Virus record (IMG/VR): IMGVR_UViG_2703718827_000001
Span: 1 to 32,372 of that record
DNA: 32,372 bases
Strand: one strand, 5' to 3'
Source: a virus
Lineage: Duplodnaviria > Heunggongvirae > Uroviricota > Caudoviricetes
Under the pieces are notes generated by a model. That model was not told where the DNA came from, did not search any database, and saw nothing but the letters and a program-made list of their open reading frames with translations. The position numbers and the translations under genes are program-made. Below, in pieces: positions 2,681 to 26,340 of this stretch (within the stretch, counting starts at the first letter, position 1; every line of letters begins with the position of its first letter).

Positions 2681-5092
2681 TTATGTGATTCGTTGACTGG
2701 TGTTGAAGTTGGTAGCGAGAGCGTTGGACAATTTGCCCTTACCGCTGGCGACATCTCTGACGGCCATGGCGTAGCCCTGCTGCGCACCTCGCTTAACCGC
2801 GGCCTCAAGCATGGCTTGTTGCTGTGCAGAGTAATCACCGTTTAGATGGATAACCGGGCTGAAATTGAACGCCCCGCCACCACCGCCGATATCCCGGTTA
2901 CTGATGACGCGACCGTTATCGCCGGGGATCATGTACTGGCTACCATTGCTGGCTTTGAAAATCTCAGGCTTGCCGCCCTCGCCCACACGGTACATGGAGC
3001 TGGCAGATACCGGGCCGCCGTTTTCGCGCCCGCCGCCATATGAGATGCTCGCAACGTTCGACAGCAATGACGCTCCAGCAGAGGCGATGGCTGCATAGTT
3101 CGCAAGTTTTTGCGCTGGAGTCAGCGCTGTCGGATCAGCCATGGCCTGCATGATTGCGGTATTCAGGCTGAGGGTAGACTGGGCAATCGCAAACGCTTTA
3201 CTGGCTGCGAACATGACCTGGTACGCCGCGTTACTCTTACCAGCAGAGTCTGCAATTATCGACGCCAGGCTATCAAAGCCCTGGGACGCAGAGCCCAGAA
3301 TAGAAAGAACGGATGCTCTTTGCTGATCTGCCTCAGTCTGCGCTATTTGCATCCGTGCGTTTGACGCCTGCAGTTGGATGGCAGTTTTGGCGTCTTCGTA
3401 AAGCTGGGTATTTTGCTTATCCAGTTCCTGATATTTAGCCAGGGCCTCAAGCTTTTGTGTTTCCTGGAGATTGATTTGCGCCAGCGGATCCACTGATGCC
3501 CCAGTGATAGGGTTGACCGAGGTATTTCCGGCGGCTATCTCCTGTTTGGCATACTTCCGCCCCTGCTCAGCCTCTTTGCGCTTCTGAATAGAGATTGCTG
3601 CCTTTTCGTTTGCCTCACCAAGAGCCCTCGCTTCCGCTAGTTGCTGCTGAGTCGCGGCGCTACCAAGAGACTGCTCCGCACGAAGACCCGCCTCTTGAAT
3701 ACGGCGCTTTTCAATCGACTCTGTGGTCAGGTCTGATTGAGCGCGGAGATTAGCCAGTTTCTGAGCAATGGATTCAGCCTGCGATGCGGAAGTTTTGCCC
3801 TCTTTGTTGCTCTCTTTCCGCGCCTCAGTAACCCGATAGGTTTCTGCATATTCATCCTGAAGAGATTTGATGCGTTTCTGATCGGTGATACCAGCGTCTG
3901 TTGCATCATATTGAGCCTGCAGCCTGGCTCTGGCTTCACCTTCAAGCTTGGCTAGCGCCAGGCGGCGCTCTGAGTTTTTTATCAGCTTCGATGTAGCCGC
4001 ATCGTCTCCGGTCGTTTTAATGTTTATTGGCTTTGTATTAGAGGCCTCTTGAGAGGCTTGGGTCACGGCAGAAATATCCCCAACGAGAGCTGCAGCTTTG
4101 TTGCTTAGCCCTGCAAGCGCCTTGCTTTGAGCCTCCCAACCATCCAGTCCCAGCCAAGACCATGTCCTCGCCCTTCGCTCAAACATCTCTGCTGTGCTAT
4201 TGAGATCGGAAATTTGAGCTGCTGCTGAAGCTGTTTTCCCAGTCAGCCTGTCTATGGCTGTGGTGATGGAGTCAATTACAGCCACCATGGTTCTGCTCGC
4301 GCCCGTAGTCTGGTTAATTGAGTCAACCATTGACAGAAACGAATTGGTAAGAGCAGCATTGGCCTGAGATAAGGTGCGGGGCAATTTTGCGAACTCTGCA
4401 TTCACGATGCTGGTTTGCTTCTGAATTGCATTGAGTGCATCTTGAGCAGAAAGCTTCCCATCCAGCATCAACTGACGCAATTCACCAATACCAATGCCAA
4501 GCCCTGCCGCCATCTGCCTTGCCAACTCAGGCATTTGCTCAAGAATAGAGTTAAATTCTTCTGCTCTGACAACACCGGATGAAATAGACTGCCCGAATTG
4601 GCGCAGCGCATTAGCCATTTCCTCGGCAGATGTTCCTCCAATTCGACCAATTTTTTGAAGGGTGTCGGTAAGCTGCAATATTTGGCCATTAGTGGCACCA
4701 GTGCTCCGCAACGCAGTGCTTAACGTTTCCCACAGCTTGGCTGTATCCTGGAGAGATCCTCCTGTTGTTGAGCTTATATTCATCAGACTTTGCATGGTCT
4801 GAGATGCGACAGAAGCACTACCAGTTAGCCTTTCAACTCGAGCGTTAAGTTGGCTCATATTGTCAGCGGCTACAAGAAATGCCTTCCCCCATTCAACGAC
4901 AATTGAAGCAGCGATCGCGCCAGCTACTCTGCTTATGCTGGTCTGAAGCTCATCAAACTTGCTGGCAGCTTTTGATACTCCGCCATTCATCTTCTCAAGC
5001 CGTTCGTTGACTTTTCGCTGGGCCTCAATAAGGTTGGCTACATCCATCTGTACTTGATAGACGATATTTCCTACCTGTTCCTCACTGGCCAT
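2681..5092 (-). CDS. Tail tape measure protein
   Basis: About 800 aa, Ala/Gln/Leu-rich helical composition typical of tape measure proteins, downstream of the major tail protein. ORF extends to 5107, but the first ATG directly abuts a terminator T-tract; the second ATG (MASEEQ..., 5090..5092) has a GGAG Shine-Dalgarno 5 nt upstream. Confidence 0.85.
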   Translation of the reverse strand: MASEEQVGNIVYQVQMDVANLIEAQRKVNERLEKMNGGVSKAASKFDELQTSISRVAGAIAASIVVEWGKAFLVAADNMSQLNARVERLTGSASVASQTMQSLMNISSTTGGSLQDTAKLWETLSTALRSTGATNGQILQLTDTLQKIGRIGGTSAEEMANALRQFGQSISSGVVRAEEFNSILEQMPELARQMAAGLGIGIGELRQLMLDGKLSAQDALNAIQKQTSIVNAEFAKLPRTLSQANAALTNSFLSMVDSINQTTGASRTMVAVIDSITTAIDRLTGKTASAAAQISDLNSTAEMFERRARTWSWLGLDGWEAQSKALAGLSNKAAALVGDISAVTQASQEASNTKPINIKTTGDDAATSKLIKNSERRLALAKLEGEARARLQAQYDATDAGITDQKRIKSLQDEYAETYRVTEARKESNKEGKTSASQAESIAQKLANLRAQSDLTTESIEKRRIQEAGLRAEQSLGSAATQQQLAEARALGEANEKAAISIQKRKEAEQGRKYAKQEIAAGNTSVNPITGASVDPLAQINLQETQKLEALAKYQELDKQNTQLYEDAKTAIQLQASNARMQIAQTEADQQRASVLSILGSASQGFDSLASIIADSAGKSNAAYQVMFAASKAFAIAQSTLSLNTAIMQAMADPTALTPAQKLANYAAIASAGASLLSNVASISYGGGRENGGPVSASSMYRVGEGGKPEIFKASNGSQYMIPGDNGRVISNRDIGGGGGAFNFSPVIHLNGDYSAQQQAMLEAAVKRGAQQGYAMAVRDVASGKGKLSNALATNFNTSQRIT

Positions 5093-5895: not shown

Positions 5896-6468
5896 TCAGA
5901 AAAAAAGATAGCCCACAGTAGTAATAGCTAACGCGCAAATCGGAGTGAGGATTGTTGCGATCCTCGCTCTGTCTAACCTGGTCCTGATTCGCTCATTCAC
6001 TTCACACAACTCTTCAGCTGTATTGTGCAAATTGGCTAACCTGATACGCCTGATTACTGATACCGGGTTGCGGTCAGCAGTAAACCCCCTACTTGCCAGT
6101 TCTTCGTAATGCTCATGGTCCAGCGATTTATAAAGTTTAGTATAGAGATCTGCCGGCGCTGAGTTAAGCAAAGCGCGAACCTGAACTGACAGGACGCCAG
6201 TAACCAAATAAATAGCGCACGCTGCCCAATAGAGCATGAACACACCAATACCTAGCGACATAAAAAAAGGTTGGTTATTTTGCGTCAGCAGTAAAAACGA
6301 TGAACCAATTCCGACAATAAGAATCCCAAGCAATTTGTATCCGTTTTCTCTGTTAATTGTATTCGATTGCTCGATCTCTTTGATGCACTCCTCGCCCTGT
6401 CTCTCGAGAAATTCAACAAGCTTATCATCGGCACTTAGAAAATAATCGTAAGGGAGATTTGTCATCAT
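5896..6468 (-). CDS. Multi-pass membrane protein (moron), unknown function
   Basis: 190 aa; two adjacent hydrophobic helices (LLGILIVGIGSSFLLLT and FFMSLGIGVFMLYWAACAIYLVTGV) and a C-terminal hydrophobic segment; weak RBS; AT-rich. Confidence 0.55.
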   Translation of the reverse strand: MMTNLPYDYFLSADDKLVEFLERQGEECIKEIEQSNTINRENGYKLLGILIVGIGSSFLLLTQNNQPFFMSLGIGVFMLYWAACAIYLVTGVLSVQVRALLNSAPADLYTKLYKSLDHEHYEELASRGFTADRNPVSVIRRIRLANLHNTAEELCEVNERIRTRLDRARIATILTPICALAITTVGYLFF

Positions 6469-6525
6469 AAACCGCTTAACTTTATGGACTTAGATAAATT
6501 TTAACCGATTGTGGGCTTGCGTATA

Positions 6526-6549
6526 AAGGAAAAGCCCACCTGAGTGGGC
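6526..6549 (-). terminator. Rho-independent terminator downstream of the KilA-N gene
   Basis: Minus-strand hairpin GCCCAC-TCAG-GTGGGC followed by TTTTCCTTTAT, about 10 nt after the KilA-N stop. Confidence 0.55.
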
Positions 6550-6559
6550 CTTGCCACCT

Positions 6560-7123
6560 TCACGCGATGCCTGGCAGGTACATCTGAACTTCATCGGCGA
6601 CGCGCTCCCTTGCTGCGTGCAACAGCTGCTTACGACCACCGACACCCCACCGGGCCATCTGGCTGGCGCATTGGCTGATCTGCCTGGTTTCAGTGTTGAT
6701 GATGTGGTCGATTTTGTTCAGGCGAGACATGGCACTGATACCGAGGCGCACTACGGTTCTGAACACCTCATACACTTCAATCTCAAATTCCGGCTTAATC
6801 CATGCAGCATAACGGATCGCCAACAGTTCAACACCCCAAACGCCTGGTTCATCCCCACCTTTAATAACATTAAGTGGTTGAATTTGTTCCAGAGTGCTTT
6901 TTTGCACTTTGGCTTTTAGTGCTTTTATGAAGCGCTTAACTTGAGCACTACGCAAAAACTGACTTGGGCGCTGCTGTTCTGTTGCCTCTCCGTTTGCCAC
7001 TGCGGCTGCATGAAGATCATTAAGGTTATAGCGCCCTTCGTCATCAACGCGAACGGAAACGCCGTTTACTGATACGGTTGGATATTTCATTGCGATTTGC
7101 CTATAGAAAGCAGAGCCTGTCAC
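6560..7123 (-). CDS. KilA-N domain protein (moron inside the tail operon)
   Basis: 187 aa; N-terminal region (VSVNGVSVRVDDEGRYNLNDLHAAA ... VIKGGDEPGVWGVELLAIRYAAWIKPEFE) matches the KilA-N/APSES-type DNA-binding domain pattern; possible alternative start at Met12. Confidence 0.7.
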   Translation of the reverse strand: MTGSAFYRQIAMKYPTVSVNGVSVRVDDEGRYNLNDLHAAAVANGEATEQQRPSQFLRSAQVKRFIKALKAKVQKSTLEQIQPLNVIKGGDEPGVWGVELLAIRYAAWIKPEFEIEVYEVFRTVVRLGISAMSRLNKIDHIINTETRQISQCASQMARWGVGGRKQLLHAARERVADEVQMYLPGIA

Positions 7124-7285: not shown

Positions 7286-7975
7286 CTACTTCTGCTTAGC
7301 CTGCCGCCGTTTGCGTCGCGCAAAGTAGTCATCTGCCGCACTATCGTACTCTTCCCTGGTGTACCCCTTCTGTTCAGGGTATTTAGCGACCAGCATCATC
7401 TGAAACTCTGTCATCGTCAGCTGTCCAGCTTCTTCTTTGCTGATGTTGAAGTGGTTGCGCGCAGCAATGATGTAATCAGATGCCCTGAATTCATTGGTTG
7501 GTTCGTTCGATTCGTGGCGCTGTAGCTTGCGTAACTTGGCTTGGCCGATAATGCCGTGCATCATCAGGCTTTGGGCGATGATGACCATTTCCTGGGGCGG
7601 CATAATACCCCGCCGCCACATAAAGCCGCGCTTCCGGCTTTTACCTGGCTTCATCCAGCCGATCAGATCTCCCACTTCATCCTCGCAGCATGCGGACAAA
7701 ACCGTATGCGCAGCCATGATAGCCTTACGGCTCAGTATTCCGCTCTGTATGTAGCGAATGACACATTCTGGCAGGCGGTCATATTCTGATTGGATGTAGG
7801 ATTTGGACGCCTTCTGGATGAGAGTAGTCACCTCATCATTACAGAGATCGTAAAACGTCTGAACAATTTCCACTGGCTCGCCAATGCTGGACATCGCGAA
7901 TAGTGACGGACGAAAAAAATAGTCCTTATCACCGACACTAATAAGGCATTCTCCAAACTCTTTAACTGGTGTCAT
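7286..7975 (-). CDS. Hypothetical tail-module protein in the tail assembly chaperone position
   Basis: 229 aa; lies directly downstream of the major tail protein, where G/GT-type chaperones normally sit; basic C-terminus; no slippery-site frameshift seen. Confidence 0.45.
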   Translation of the reverse strand: MTPVKEFGECLISVGDKDYFFRPSLFAMSSIGEPVEIVQTFYDLCNDEVTTLIQKASKSYIQSEYDRLPECVIRYIQSGILSRKAIMAAHTVLSACCEDEVGDLIGWMKPGKSRKRGFMWRRGIMPPQEMVIIAQSLMMHGIIGQAKLRKLQRHESNEPTNEFRASDYIIAARNHFNISKEEAGQLTMTEFQMMLVAKYPEQKGYTREEYDSAADDYFARRKRRQAKQK

Positions 7976-8024: not shown

Positions 8025-8777
8025 TTACACAGTGACAGTTACGGTGTGGGTTGCCGTGAATGCGCCATCATCAGTGGTGACAGTAATCACCGCGGTTCCC
8101 GCTGTGGCCCCGGAAGGGGCAGATACGGTTACGGTATTACCTGAGAAAGCCACCGTAGCGCGAGCTGGTACGGATGACGTGACAGTAAACACTTTATTGT
8201 CAGCATCTACTGGCGCAATGTTCACGGTGAACGTCGTGCTTGAACCGGCCGCAATAGAACTGCTGGTTGGTGTAACCGTCACGCCTGTTACCGCGATATC
8301 GCCATCAGCTTCGGTGATCTGGAAAGTAGAACCATCTGCCAGCTTGAACTCAAAGCTGTAGGTGACAATTTCCTTAACACCACCACCATCGCTGGCACCA
8401 GACGGCACCATGTAGCCGATGTGATAATAATCGCCCCAATGGAAACGCATCCACACGCCAGGCTGACGGCGGGCCCGAACCTCATCAACGATATACTTCA
8501 CGAACTGCTGAACACCGAATTCGTCGGTGCGGTCCTTGACACGCACCTCGCCTTCAATCGAATAGGTTGGATCGAGGCTGGAGATCAGGTTTGAACTGAA
8601 ACCGCCATTATCGGCATCAGACGTAAGGGCCTCAGGACTCAAATCCCACGTAGCCGAAGTTGGAAGGCCCATCAGCTTCCAGTCACCTTCCTCCGGCACC
8701 AGGTCAGCGCATCCGTACGCCAGTTCCAGCGTCTTCGCGCGACCAATTAGTTGTTCGTTATTGGAGCAGCCTTGCAT
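8025..8777 (-). CDS. Major tail (tube) protein with C-terminal Ig-like (Big_2-type) domain
   Basis: 250 aa; C-terminal Thr/Val/Ser-rich beta repeats (TVTGVTVTPTSSSIAAGSSTTFTVNIAPVD...VTVTV) typical of Ig-like domains on siphovirus tail tube proteins; position upstream of the tape measure. Confidence 0.8.
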   Translation of the reverse strand: MQGCSNNEQLIGRAKTLELAYGCADLVPEEGDWKLMGLPTSATWDLSPEALTSDADNGGFSSNLISSLDPTYSIEGEVRVKDRTDEFGVQQFVKYIVDEVRARRQPGVWMRFHWGDYYHIGYMVPSGASDGGGVKEIVTYSFEFKLADGSTFQITEADGDIAVTGVTVTPTSSSIAAGSSTTFTVNIAPVDADNKVFTVTSSVPARATVAFSGNTVTVSAPSGATAGTAVITVTTDDGAFTATHTVTVTV

Positions 8778-8846
8778 CTTTGCTTACCTCACTTCTGATA
8801 ATAAAAAAGGCCGCTCCGGGCGACCTTGTGTGATGTTGATTTTGAG

Positions 8847-9236
8847 CTATCCGCCAAACAGACAGGCAAATTGCAGGCGCCACACCATGCGCCCTTCGGT
8901 AGTCATTACAGGAGATGGTATGCCGCCCATATTTGAGATTTGCCCAAGGCAGCGATTTGTCATCGGGTTTGCTTTCACATAGTCGATGATGGCCTGAACG
9001 TCATCCTCAGCTTTTGATTTGTCGCCAAGAGACTTACCCGTGATAAGGTCAACAAGGACGTAATAATCAGCCGCCATGTCGCGGTCTATCGCCGTGCCGC
9101 CATTTGGCCGGAAGACAATGAACCGATCAGCAAGCTTCCCGGAATCAGACCACAAAAGAGACTGAACGATGTAGCCTGTAGTAAGTCCGGCATCAACGAT
9201 AACGTTGCGAAAACGCTTATACATCGGAGGGGTCAC
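8847..9236 (-). CDS. Tail terminator / tail completion protein (gpU-position)
   Basis: 129 aa, immediately upstream of the major tail protein gene; position-based. Confidence 0.4.
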   Translation of the reverse strand: MTPPMYKRFRNVIVDAGLTTGYIVQSLLWSDSGKLADRFIVFRPNGGTAIDRDMAADYYVLVDLITGKSLGDKSKAEDDVQAIIDYVKANPMTNRCLGQISNMGGIPSPVMTTEGRMVWRLQFACLFGG

Positions 9237-9603: not shown

Positions 9604-9960
9604 CTACACTCCCGTCAGGATGGCAAAATCATCCGCCACGCGCTCGAACGTGTCGGCGTAGCGGATAACCTGCCGCACCTCGTCAGCGCCAGCGGCAACC
9701 GGATCGGCGTCGGTAGATTCACCAATCAGCAGGTAATCACCGGCGTCGGCCAGCGCGTATTCCGTCCAGACGGTATTTTTCACGACAATTTCAGTGCCCA
9801 GGTTGCCGATACGCTTTGACAGGCCTCCCTCATAATCGACCATGATGACTACCGGCGCGTCATAGCCGTTTATGGGGTCGCCGTTTTCATCCCTGCCGCC
9901 TGCACCCTTGCGCCAGATAGTGGCTTTGGCGGTGTAGGACCAGTTTGCTACGCTAGACAT
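9604..9960 (-). CDS. Head-tail adaptor / head closure protein (hypothetical)
   Basis: 118 aa ORF in the head-tail joining block; position-based. Confidence 0.4.
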   Translation of the reverse strand: MSSVANWSYTAKATIWRKGAGGRDENGDPINGYDAPVVIMVDYEGGLSKRIGNLGTEIVVKNTVWTEYALADAGDYLLIGESTDADPVAAGADEVRQVIRYADTFERVADDFAILTGV

Positions 9961-9970
9961 CGCTCACCCC

Positions 9971-10288
9971 TCACAGTTCTGGTAGCGGCACCGTCATGCC
10001 CGCCATGTTATGCGTACAGTCATTCAGATATTGAATCTGCCCATCTGTCACAAATGAATGGCAAGTAAACGGCTTGTCTTTCGTGGCGTCGTCAAACTCC
10101 TCTGGATCATCGCTGGGCGTGAAGCCTGTGACTAAAACGCTGGGGGTAAGCGTGGGCTTATCCATGCTGCCATTCCATCCCCATCGCGGCCCATTGCCAT
10201 TGCCAACCTGCACTACATGGCGACTGCCACACCCAGGACACATGAAAGATAATCGGTTATCGCTCGCCTTCTTCACTCGCTCTGTCAT
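9971..10288 (-). CDS. Small Cys/His-containing (zinc-ribbon-like) protein
   Basis: Likely start at the internal Met (MTERVKK...), overlapping the upstream small ORF stop as ATGA; motifs CPGCGSRH and CHSF...DCTH. Confidence 0.45.
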   Translation of the reverse strand: MTERVKKASDNRLSFMCPGCGSRHVVQVGNGNGPRWGWNGSMDKPTLTPSVLVTGFTPSDDPEEFDDATKDKPFTCHSFVTDGQIQYLNDCTHNMAGMTVPLPEL

Positions 10289-10455
10289 TCCTTCCACCTC
10301 AGCACCTTCGCTCCAGTCGCCCGGATGCGCGGGCAGTTGATGAACCACTCACCGTCCGATTTAACGTAGCCGGTAGTTTCCCGCCCGGTGTCGGTCATCA
10401 CCCAGACGCGGACGAATGAACGCGGCAGCCCATGCTTCACTGATTTGTACGTCAT
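10285..10455 (-). CDS. Small hypothetical protein (56 aa)
   Basis: Hand-translated minus-strand ORF (MTYKSVKHGLPRSF...VLRWKE) filling the gap between two structural genes, with start and stop overlapping its neighbours; below the ORF-track size cutoff. Confidence 0.35.
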   Translation of the reverse strand: MTYKSVKHGLPRSFVRVWVMTDTGRETTGYVKSDGEWFINCPRIRATGAKVLRWKE

Positions 10456-10835
10456 CAGCAGCCTCCGACCACCATGAACAGGCCCACACTGTTGCCGGCG
10501 CTGATAGGCAGCTCACCAGTGCATCCGCTGGTATCGAGGCGGGCCAGCGAGTCGCGCAACCAGGTGATGCTGTCGTCACCGTACTCAAACGAGCGTGACG
10601 CGCCAGACGGCGCACCCTGCGATTTGATGCGGCGCGCACCGGACGACGTAGCCATAAGCGCGGCGGCATACATCAGGATCAGCTTCGCGGTGCACTCGTC
10701 ATAGCCAGCGCCATCGAGGCACGGGATAATCTTATTCACCACGCAGAGAATCGGATCCAGCAGCGCGCCCGGGATGGAGTAACCCAATTCACCGAGAAAC
10801 GCCTGCACGTCTGCCGCTGTGATTGGGTCAGCCAT
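10455..10835 (-). CDS. Head-tail connector-type protein (possibly DUF4054-like)
   Basis: 126 aa ORF immediately downstream of the capsid-associated genes; family call from memory only. Confidence 0.4.
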   Translation of the reverse strand: MADPITAADVQAFLGELGYSIPGALLDPILCVVNKIIPCLDGAGYDECTAKLILMYAAALMATSSGARRIKSQGAPSGASRSFEYGDDSITWLRDSLARLDTSGCTGELPISAGNSVGLFMVVGGC

Positions 10836-14217: not shown

Positions 14218-14571
14218 ATGAAAAAAATTGCAATGGCTATCGGGGTTGGTGCGCTGATAATTTCTTTCGACTCAATGGCTGATTACTACGGTGGTAATGA
14301 TATTGCCAAATGGAGCGACTCCAGACTTAAAGCCAAGGCTGGAACCGCTGATAACATGGACTATGTTAACGTTGCAACTTTACGAGGCCTTGTTATTGGT
14401 GTTCATGATGCTTTCGAAGGGTCTTCAATCTGCTCGCCTCAGGGAGCAACAAATGGGCAAATAGTCGATACGGTTACTTTATACGTATCAAACCATCCGG
14501 AGAAGCGTACCGATAATGCATCTCTGTTGGCTTATGAGGCATTATCCAACGCCTACCCGTGTAAAAAATAG
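14218..14571 (+). CDS. Secreted small protein (moron) on the opposite strand inside the head module
   Basis: 117 aa; N-terminal signal peptide (MKKIAMAIGVGALIISFDSMA); strong AAAGGAG Shine-Dalgarno; two Cys residues; AT-rich; its stop abuts the stop of the convergent minus-strand gene with no gap. Confidence 0.6.
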   Translation: MKKIAMAIGVGALIISFDSMADYYGGNDIAKWSDSRLKAKAGTADNMDYVNVATLRGLVIGVHDAFEGSSICSPQGATNGQIVDTVTLYVSNHPEKRTDNASLLAYEALSNAYPCKK

Positions 14572-25722: not shown

Positions 25723-26340
25723 TCAGCAAATAATATCTTCCTGCTGCGGCGCTGCCGGCAGCGGCATCCAGTGGGTTGGGCTCCATGATGCTCCTGGTAT
25801 AATCCAGCCATCTATATCTGCATCCGGATGCCCAGGGCAATTTGTTGCCCACTTCATTGCATAGCCGCCAGGAGCTGATTGCCATGGCGCAGCAACTATC
25901 ACACCTGTTGATGGGCTTGGCATCCGCTTACTGCAAGCCACCCAACCGTCTGTCAACTCATCACTATTACTTACAGGTTCGGCCTGAAGCATGGCGGCGC
26001 GATAGGCGTTCCAGCCGACAGCTTTTCCGTGTTCAAACGCGCTGTCAAAGTCATCATCAATTTCCATCGCAGCGGGCACAGATACCGGCGCTGGCGGGGC
26101 GGTGTAAAGCGGCGTTACTTCTCGCAGCGGGTCGGCATAAGCATTGCCACTATCGAAGCTGACGTTGTTTTTTGCCCCGCCTCCTGACAGCAACCACGCC
26201 ACCGGCTCCGCTTCGAGCGATGCCAGCGCTATACGCGCCATCTCTTTGACAACGTCACAGTTTTTATTTCCTTCGCAATCATCCATCAAAAGCCAATCGT
26301 CATTGATTATTTCTTTAATCTTATCCCGTGAAAGTTCCAT
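25723..26340 (-). CDS. DUF551-domain protein
   Basis: 205 aa; C-terminal Trp-rich region (DGWVACSKRMP...THWMPLP) typical of DUF551 proteins common in lambdoid early regions. Confidence 0.65.
   Translation of the reverse strand: MELSRDKIKEIINDDWLLMDDCEGNKNCDVVKEMARIALASLEAEPVAWLLSGGGAKNNVSFDSGNAYADPLREVTPLYTAPPAPVSVPAAMEIDDDFDSAFEHGKAVGWNAYRAAMLQAEPVSNSDELTDGWVACSKRMPSPSTGVIVAAPWQSAPGGYAMKWATNCPGHPDADIDGWIIPGASWSPTHWMPLPAAPQQEDIIC

Follow-up and report, generated by a model that had tools for sequence, protein, structure and literature searches.

Two small genes, of 56 and 105 codons, lie between structural genes in the connector block of a lambdoid prophage of Escherichia coli GN25. Both are accessory late genes under purifying selection, and the second has been inserted as a precise gene-sized cassette and is not a connector gene. 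Taken as a whole, the evidence is best explained if the product of the second, a protein of the DUF6527/BubE family, is a soluble peptidase of the late phase of infection and no part of the virion, a reading that we consider probable. The grounds for these statements are the composition of the block in related prophages, the substitution patterns of the two genes, the conserved residues of the family and the company that its members keep in other phages.

The prophage and its structural module

The window, that is, the whole stretch of 32,372 nucleotides that was analysed, represents a lambdoid prophage whose structural module is of ES18 type, and the prophage of E. coli GN25 (NZ_CP139196.1) is 99.9% identical to the window region. 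Pfam and PHROG scans of the neighbouring genes recognise an ES18-type siphovirus module in which a decoration protein is followed by the major capsid protein (DUF6260), a 121-aa protein, a gp11-like DUF7370 protein, the 56-aa ORF and the 105-aa ORF, and then by a gp13-like protein (phrog_797), the Neck1/tail completion protein, the tail terminator and an Ig-domain major tail protein. The remainder of the window is lambdoid by Pfam scan, with Q, NinG, NinB, a DnaB-like helicase, an S24 repressor, holins and a GH108 endolysin. The features that concern us are the following.

10455-10835, minus strand: ES18 gp11-like protein (DUF7370), 126 aa, the upstream neighbour (Pfam DUF7370, 5.6e-42; phrog_786)
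10285-10455, minus strand: 56-aa gene of the ES18 gp12 family, predicted to encode a stand-alone mini beta-barrel of DUF551 fold (phrog_1261, 7e-34)
9971-10288, minus strand: 105-aa protein of the DUF6527/BubE family, predicted all-beta and rich in Cys/His (Pfam PF20137, phrog_3362)
9961-10288, minus strand: inserted cassette, comprising the DUF6527 ORF and the 10-nt spacer GGGGTGAGCG (DNA alignment with relatives that have no insert)
9604-9960, minus strand: ES18 gp13-like protein, 118 aa, in the head-closure position, the downstream neighbour (phrog_797, 2e-47)

The homologues of the two flanking proteins in phage mEp021, mEp021_57 (gp11-like) and mEp021_58 (gp13-like), are both annotated 'virion structural protein'. 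The preliminary description, made from the sequence alone, had placed the two small genes between structural genes, and with these gp11-like and gp13-like flanks that placement is secure.

A terminator-like hairpin (8807-8827, minus strand; 8-bp stem with five GC pairs and a T-run) stands in the short interval that separates the tail-terminator gene (8847-9236) from the major tail protein gene (8025-8777), where one would hardly expect a late operon to carry a stop signal. Within the head module, on the opposite strand and flanked by a MuF-like gene and a phrog_760 gene, lies a gene for a 117-aa Rap1a-family protein (14218-14571, plus strand; Pfam PF18602, type VI secretion immunity protein; phrog_3870), which is kept in several related prophages (L009-L012 and L014) and resembles lysogenic-conversion cargo. 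The tail module carries non-structural cargo at 5896-7123 (minus strand), placed between the DUF6246 gene (7286-7975) and the tape measure gene and consisting of a KilA-N domain protein (within 6560-7123) and a 190-aa protein (5896-6468) with no recorded Pfam hit.

Coding evidence and the gp12–gp13 slot

The two ORFs are closely packed with their neighbours. The TGA of the 126-aa gene (10457-10455) shares its A with the ATG of the 56-aa ORF (10455-10453) in a TGATG overlap, and a GGAGG stands at 10466-10462, 7 nt upstream of that start. The TGA of the 56-aa ORF (10287-10285) in turn overlaps the ATG of the 105-aa ORF (10288-10286) as ATGA, a junction preceded by GAGGTGGAAGGA. The 105-aa ORF ends at 9971 and is separated by the 10-nt spacer from the ATG of the next gene at 9960. 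Its mechanically called form has 125 aa from an upstream GTG; homologues begin MTERVKK, and the true length is therefore 105 aa. Linkage of the two ORFs by TGATG and ATGA overlaps had been claimed beforehand, and both the reverse-complement reading and the ORF list bear it out, but the overlaps are nothing special, since such junctions are the rule throughout the connector block in relatives. In RefSeq NZ_CP139196.1 the 105-aa gene is labelled 'DUF6527 family protein' and the 56-aa ORF is uncalled, in agreement with the earlier remark that the latter was absent from the ORF track.

Both ORFs are real genes under purifying selection. Across 39 species-level loci the 56-aa gene has a median dN/dS of 0.18 in frame, compared with 1.7 and 2.4 in the shifted frames, and its variation is concentrated at third codon positions. 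For the DUF6527 gene, dN/dS is 0.063 in frame (dS about 0.56) and 2.3-2.5 out of frame. The high identity among DUF6527 sequences was considered as a sign of recent transfer and rejected on these values (dS about 0.56, dN/dS 0.06), most of the identity being due to purifying selection. No promoter-like or terminator-like site was found on the minus strand between 9900 and 10500, so that expression of the genes must ride on the late operon.

The history of the DUF6527 gene becomes clear from relatives of the prophage. One genome per species was scanned with the gp12 family, which yielded 48 usable Enterobacterales prophage loci, all with the same gp11–gp12–gp13–Neck1 order. The slot between gp12 and gp13 holds a DUF6527 gene in eight of the 48, is empty in 31 and carries other cargo, in the form of small ORFs, in the remaining nine. 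At the empty loci gp13 follows gp12 directly, usually with a TGATG overlap, whereas the gap between the two genes measures 327-328 nt in all eight loci that bear DUF6527. DNA alignment with three loci that have no insert (L016, L017 and L028), in which gp12 (ending WKEG) overlaps gp13 by TGATG, gives precise boundaries: the cassette replaces the last gp12 codon and brings its own Shine-Dalgarno sequence for the gp13-like gene. Among 5,426 complete E. coli genomes the block occurs in 29, and of these GN25 alone has the insert. In being a gene-sized insertion between conserved genes, patchy among close relatives, the cassette recalls the morons of lambdoid phages (bor, lom), from which it differs in having no promoter or terminator of its own and in being co-oriented with, and coupled to, the late operon.

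A component of the connector would be present wherever the module is and akin to a known connector family, and neither small gene has this character. The preliminary description had suggested that the zinc-ribbon-like protein may be accessory, and the distributions support an accessory status of both genes: the DUF6527 gene occupies the slot in eight of the 48 relatives and in one of the 29 E. coli genomes with the block, and the gp12-like gene is missing in phage Akira, where the gp11-position and gp13-like genes overlap directly.

The slots of the block receive other small genes as well. Slot cargo lies in the following relatives (locus and positions).

L018, 2450-2956
L026, 645-1190
L032, 1648-1935
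L039, 3577-3864
L038, 3537-3707
L058, 3695-3874
L019, 3167-3400
L050, 3168-3506

The gp11–gp12 and gp13–Neck1 slots of other relatives contain putative HNH endonucleases and small proteins that resemble membrane proteins. Over all three slots the cargo includes HNH-type-looking proteins (judged by eye), unrelated proteins of 77 and 112 aa, and hydrophobic, membrane-protein-like products of 95 aa and of 56-59 aa. This variety argues that the connector block is a general landing zone for small cargo. In three loci (L021, L030 and L042, at about 3159-3335) the gp12–gp13 slot holds an ORF of 54-58 aa that carries the gp12 C-terminus (VVLRWKEG, or SCKEG in L042) and is followed by TGATG, which suggests that the 3′ end of gp12 was partly duplicated on insertion.

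The two proteins

The 56-aa protein matches phrog_1261 from end to end (7e-34) and belongs to a family that counts thousands of members in 158 clusters at 90% identity. ES18 gp12 itself, also of PHROG 1261, is 50% identical to it and sits in the same position between gp11 and gp13. RefSeq labels ES18 gp12 as DUF551, and 15 of 35 family members match Pfam DUF551 (PF04448) weakly (best 1.7e-4), while the window protein has no match at E 0.1 or better. Its AF2 model (pLDDT 95.3) finds almost exclusively DUF551 proteins among the top BFVD matches, with probability 1.0 and TMq of 0.67-0.83; the E-values are no better than 4e-3, which a chain as short as 56 residues would lead one to expect. As modelled, the protein is a bare DUF551-fold domain: it resembles DUF551 proteins such as YfdS and the DUF551 domain of Ea22 variant V2 in predicted fold, but consists of that domain alone and falls below detection by the Pfam model.

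Elsewhere in the window a second and much clearer DUF551 domain (Pfam 1.7e-12) lies in the early region, probably at 25723-26340 (minus strand), where a local profile alignment puts it in a 205-aa ORF with the sequence WVACSKRMP; the early region also encodes an Ead/Ea22-like protein. In public annotations gp12-like proteins are widely mislabelled '50S ribosomal protein L13', and others are named 'gp12'.

The 56-aa gene is fixed in its lineage and lies outside the general connector set. It is found in 41 phage records, ES18 gp12 included, as against 244 for the gp13-like gene. The PHROG matches of both the 56-aa and the 105-aa protein are of 'unknown function' and belong to no connector family. 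In mEp021 the gp12-like ORF is unannotated and the locus has no DUF6527 gene; the published virion proteome of mEp021, with 16 proteins, is consequently silent on the gp12-like protein, which was presumably outside the protein set used for mass spectrometry. A literature search on ES18 gp12 or on virion proteomics returned nothing usable.

The 105-aa protein is a typical member of a family already catalogued in Pfam, PHROG and RefSeq. It matches Pfam PF20137 (DUF6527, named BubE in newer Pfam labelling) with 57.3 bits against a cut-off of 23.6 (E = 1.4e-15), residues 13-87 aligning with profile positions 3-62 of 63, and phrog_3362 over its full length (129.5 bits, 9.7e-38). The motifs CPGCGSRH, CHSF and DCTH, on which it had been called zinc-ribbon-like, are all present in the ORF, but they amount to one CxxC knuckle with isolated Cys and His residues, and the profile search leads instead to the DUF6527/BubE beta-sandwich family. 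A classical zinc ribbon was rejected on the same pattern, C17-P-G-C20 being the only knuckle and C76 and C91 standing singly. The predicted model is confident and all-beta, a compact sandwich of about eight strands without a close structural homologue, which is a trait of BubE. We are confident that the protein is an accessory, non-connector member of this family.

BubE is the DUF6527 protein of the bacterial ubiquitination-like operons termed Bub (6E), described as a compact beta-sandwich with a C4 zinc site (C57/C59/C61/C99 in the Citrobacter protein) and no structural homologues (10.1101/2024.11.21.623953). According to the same account, an invariant Ser92–His102 dyad cleaves peptide and isopeptide bonds of a ubiquitin-like protein (Ubl), BubE removes conjugates of BubA with its targets in cells, and mutation of either dyad residue leaves BubE non-functional in cells; the activity, reported in this one preprint, is very weak and involved incubations of 48 h (10.1101/2024.11.21.623953).

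Strong conservation marks a set of Cys, His, Ser and Asp residues in the phage family. In an alignment of 269 sequences C76, H77, D90 and H93 are invariant, and C17, C20, H24 and S50 are kept in 266-268 (S50 in 267). Two positions are less constant, S78 giving way to T, V, L or F in 18 sequences and C91 to S in 26; being variable, S78 is unlikely to be a nucleophile. The D90-C91-x-H93 motif lies past the end of the Pfam model. From this pattern one zinc ion would be bound through C17, C20 and C76 together with a fourth ligand, which could be C91, H93 or H24, and S50 and H77 are the putative Ser–His peptidase dyad of the family. The assignment of the dyad draws on the Ser…Cys…His order, a C-to-S spacing of 33 (33-35 in BubE) and Pfam profile coordinates. 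Catalytic activity as a Ser/His peptidase may be entertained for the 105-aa protein, at a likelihood that we place just short of even.

The likeness to BubE lies in the shared Pfam family (57 bits), a small all-beta domain without detectable structural relatives, a putative Cys-rich zinc site and a conserved Ser, Cys and His in the same chain order. The differences are as follows. The four cysteines of the window protein (C17, C20, C76 and C91) form the pattern CxxC…H, C, DCxH, unlike the CxCxC…C of BubE, such that a CPGC knuckle with H24 takes the place of CxCxC and the D-C-x-H is additional. The protein does not share the hydrophobic N- or C-terminal extension seen in BubE: it starts MTERVKKASDNR and ends TVPLPEL, with no hydrophobic tail, and neither a signal peptide nor a transmembrane segment can be made out in its sequence. 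It is also encoded singly in a phage late operon, without recognisable E1, E2 or Ubl genes in the window; none of the ThiF, UBC, JAB or Ubl families was found among the 25 families listed out of the 29 Pfam families matched by the 33 other large ORFs. A ubiquitin-like link through the tail, of the lambda gpI/K type, was considered and rejected, a partial central-tail-fibre-like ORF at the left end and a CHAP-like 143-aa protein having given no Ubl or JAB match. Searches of PADLOC, NCBIfam and PDB sequences produced nothing useful.

The DUF6527 protein in phage infection

The phage-type subfamily is very large. By tblastn DUF6527 occurs in 283 phage records of very different kinds, with relatives at 45-77% identity in Salmonella phage St162, RcapMu, Klebsiella Mu-like prophages and Erwinia jumbo phages. 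An exhaustive profile search returned 5,628 clusters (50% identity), of which 4,170 reach E 1e-10 or better; the best 150 representatives are all phage-type, and a tblastn search of plasmids (E 10) gave phage-type or orphan copies only. The listed hosts are all Gram-negative, with the exception of one Deinococcus plasmid. Longer members of the family (144-312 aa) have no second Pfam domain and so offer no fusion clue. Public annotations often mislabel the DUF6527 proteins of phages 'ammonia monooxygenase' or 'anaerobic dehydrogenase'.

In other phages, too, members of the family are found in late operons, most often directly after an endolysin gene and ahead of an Rz-like spanin gene. PHROG 3362 relatives of the window protein, whose own gene is in the connector block, are encoded beside terminase or portal genes or between endolysin and spanin: on inspection, between terminase and portal genes in RcapMu, before the terminase in Klebsiella Mu-like prophages and between the portal and MuF genes in St162. 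In three unrelated prophages inspected individually the gene directly follows the endolysin. Among 62 diverse IMG/VR contigs the immediately upstream ORF is a peptidoglycan hydrolase in about 22-25 (by Pfam, Phage_lysozyme in seven, GH19 in six, GH108, Hydrolase_2 and CHAP in three each, Muramidase in two and Glucosaminidase in one), and the immediately downstream ORF is an Rz-like spanin, of five PHROG families, in up to 19 of 54; the neighbours were tallied with a simple ORF heuristic, the contigs are not independent of one another, and a multi-domain protein may figure twice. Large virulent phages carry the gene among hypothetical and DNA-metabolism genes, away from late and lysis genes, and the inference of a late function is accordingly not universal.

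On the explanation ranked first, both genes of the window would be expressed within the late structural operon through translational coupling, and the DUF6527 protein would act as a soluble late-phase peptidase or isopeptidase with no part in the virion. The usual endolysin/i-spanin position of the family in other phages points to a task late in infection. That the protein is not a stoichiometric component of the virion is, taken separately, highly probable.

Next in rank stand two more specific roles, each of which we regard as unlikely. According to the first, the protein is a counter-defence deconjugase that would strip host ubiquitin-like tags, of Bub type or perhaps Bil type, from newly made virion proteins. 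Viral deubiquitinases and deISGylases act in this manner in eukaryotes. The analogy draws on homology to BubE, with its removal of BubA conjugates in cells, on co-expression of the DUF6527 gene with virion proteins and on a patchy, cassette-like distribution typical of accessory genes; moreover, Bil systems are described as attaching their tag to a phage tail protein, and defence-type regulators are often found linked to Bub operons, as set out in the Corbett-lab preprints. The number of Bub operons reported there is 544; set against 4,170 phage-type clusters (50% identity, E 1e-10 or better), this is a proportion hardly expected of a dedicated countermeasure. Nor is Bub itself proven to act against phages, no PADLOC model matches the protein, and the passages on DUF6527 consulted in the two preprints do not discuss phage copies. 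Deconjugation also leaves the endolysin/spanin neighbourhood unexplained. The abundance of the family relative to Bub operons and its endolysin/spanin habit together argue for a common late or lytic task over counter-defence.

The second role, no more favoured than the first, is that of a lysis helper: a cytoplasmic protein that would pass through holin lesions and cut a peptide or isopeptide bond of the envelope, for example a peptidoglycan cross-link or a tether of the outer membrane to peptidoglycan, and so complement endolysins of glycosidase type. Peptide and isopeptide cleavage is the chemistry described for BubE, the listed hosts are Gram-negative but for the Deinococcus plasmid, and the gene comes directly after an endolysin (seven Pfam catalytic families) and directly before an Rz-like spanin in the contigs counted above, with the three inspected cases in agreement. 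Against this, about 10 kb separate the window gene from the lysis cassette, the gene has no lysis genes beside it in Mu-like phages, Kagunavirus and large virulent phages, the protein lacks a visible signal peptide or transmembrane segment, and lysis is presumably normal in relatives that lack the gene. Neither the counter-defence nor the lysis idea accounts neatly for the contexts in large phages.

Ranked last are a non-catalytic and a structural role. A zinc-finger protein that binds a host or phage macromolecule as a regulator would be in keeping with the small size, the conserved Cys/His cluster and the extremely weak activity of BubE in its 48-h incubations; it is distinctly improbable, given that S50, H77, D90 and H93 are kept in all or nearly all sequences, which is more than a zinc site would require, and that mutation of the BubE Ser or His is reported to abolish function in cells. 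Least probable of all is a minor virion or assembly factor, with one or both small proteins bound to the connector as plug, decoration or chaperone: both genes are flanked by and coupled to genes for which mEp021 has homologues annotated as virion structural proteins, and the gp12-like gene holds a fixed position throughout the lineage, but the DUF6527 gene is missing in 40 of the 48 relatives with the same connector genes and turns up at unrelated positions in myoviruses, Mu-like and jumbo phages, gp12 is missing in Akira-type phages with the same flanks, and neither protein has a PHROG connector match.

The immediate outcome for the window is a correction of the annotation, which gains a real 56-aa gene missed by RefSeq and exchanges 'zinc ribbon' for DUF6527/BubE. 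Beyond this, descriptions of BubE have so far been confined to bacterial ubiquitin-like operons, and its stand-alone phage relatives are far more numerous. They are under strong purifying selection, move between late genes as gene-sized cassettes and are strikingly often wedged between endolysin and spanin; the size, the mobility and the lysis-cassette association of this group do not appear in the searchable literature. It is conceivable, though on balance doubtful, that the stand-alone phage DUF6527/BubE proteins (more than 4,000 clusters at 50% identity) constitute a previously unrecognised functional class of late phage isopeptidases. If so, they might be a viral 'deubiquitinase' that clears ubiquitin-like tags off virion proteins or a lysis enzyme that cuts an isopeptide link in the envelope, and either Bub operons would have borrowed the enzyme from phages or phages would have taken it from Bub operons. 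These observations offer a testable handle on the role of the DUF6527 fold in phages and on whether phages counter bacterial ubiquitin-like tagging.
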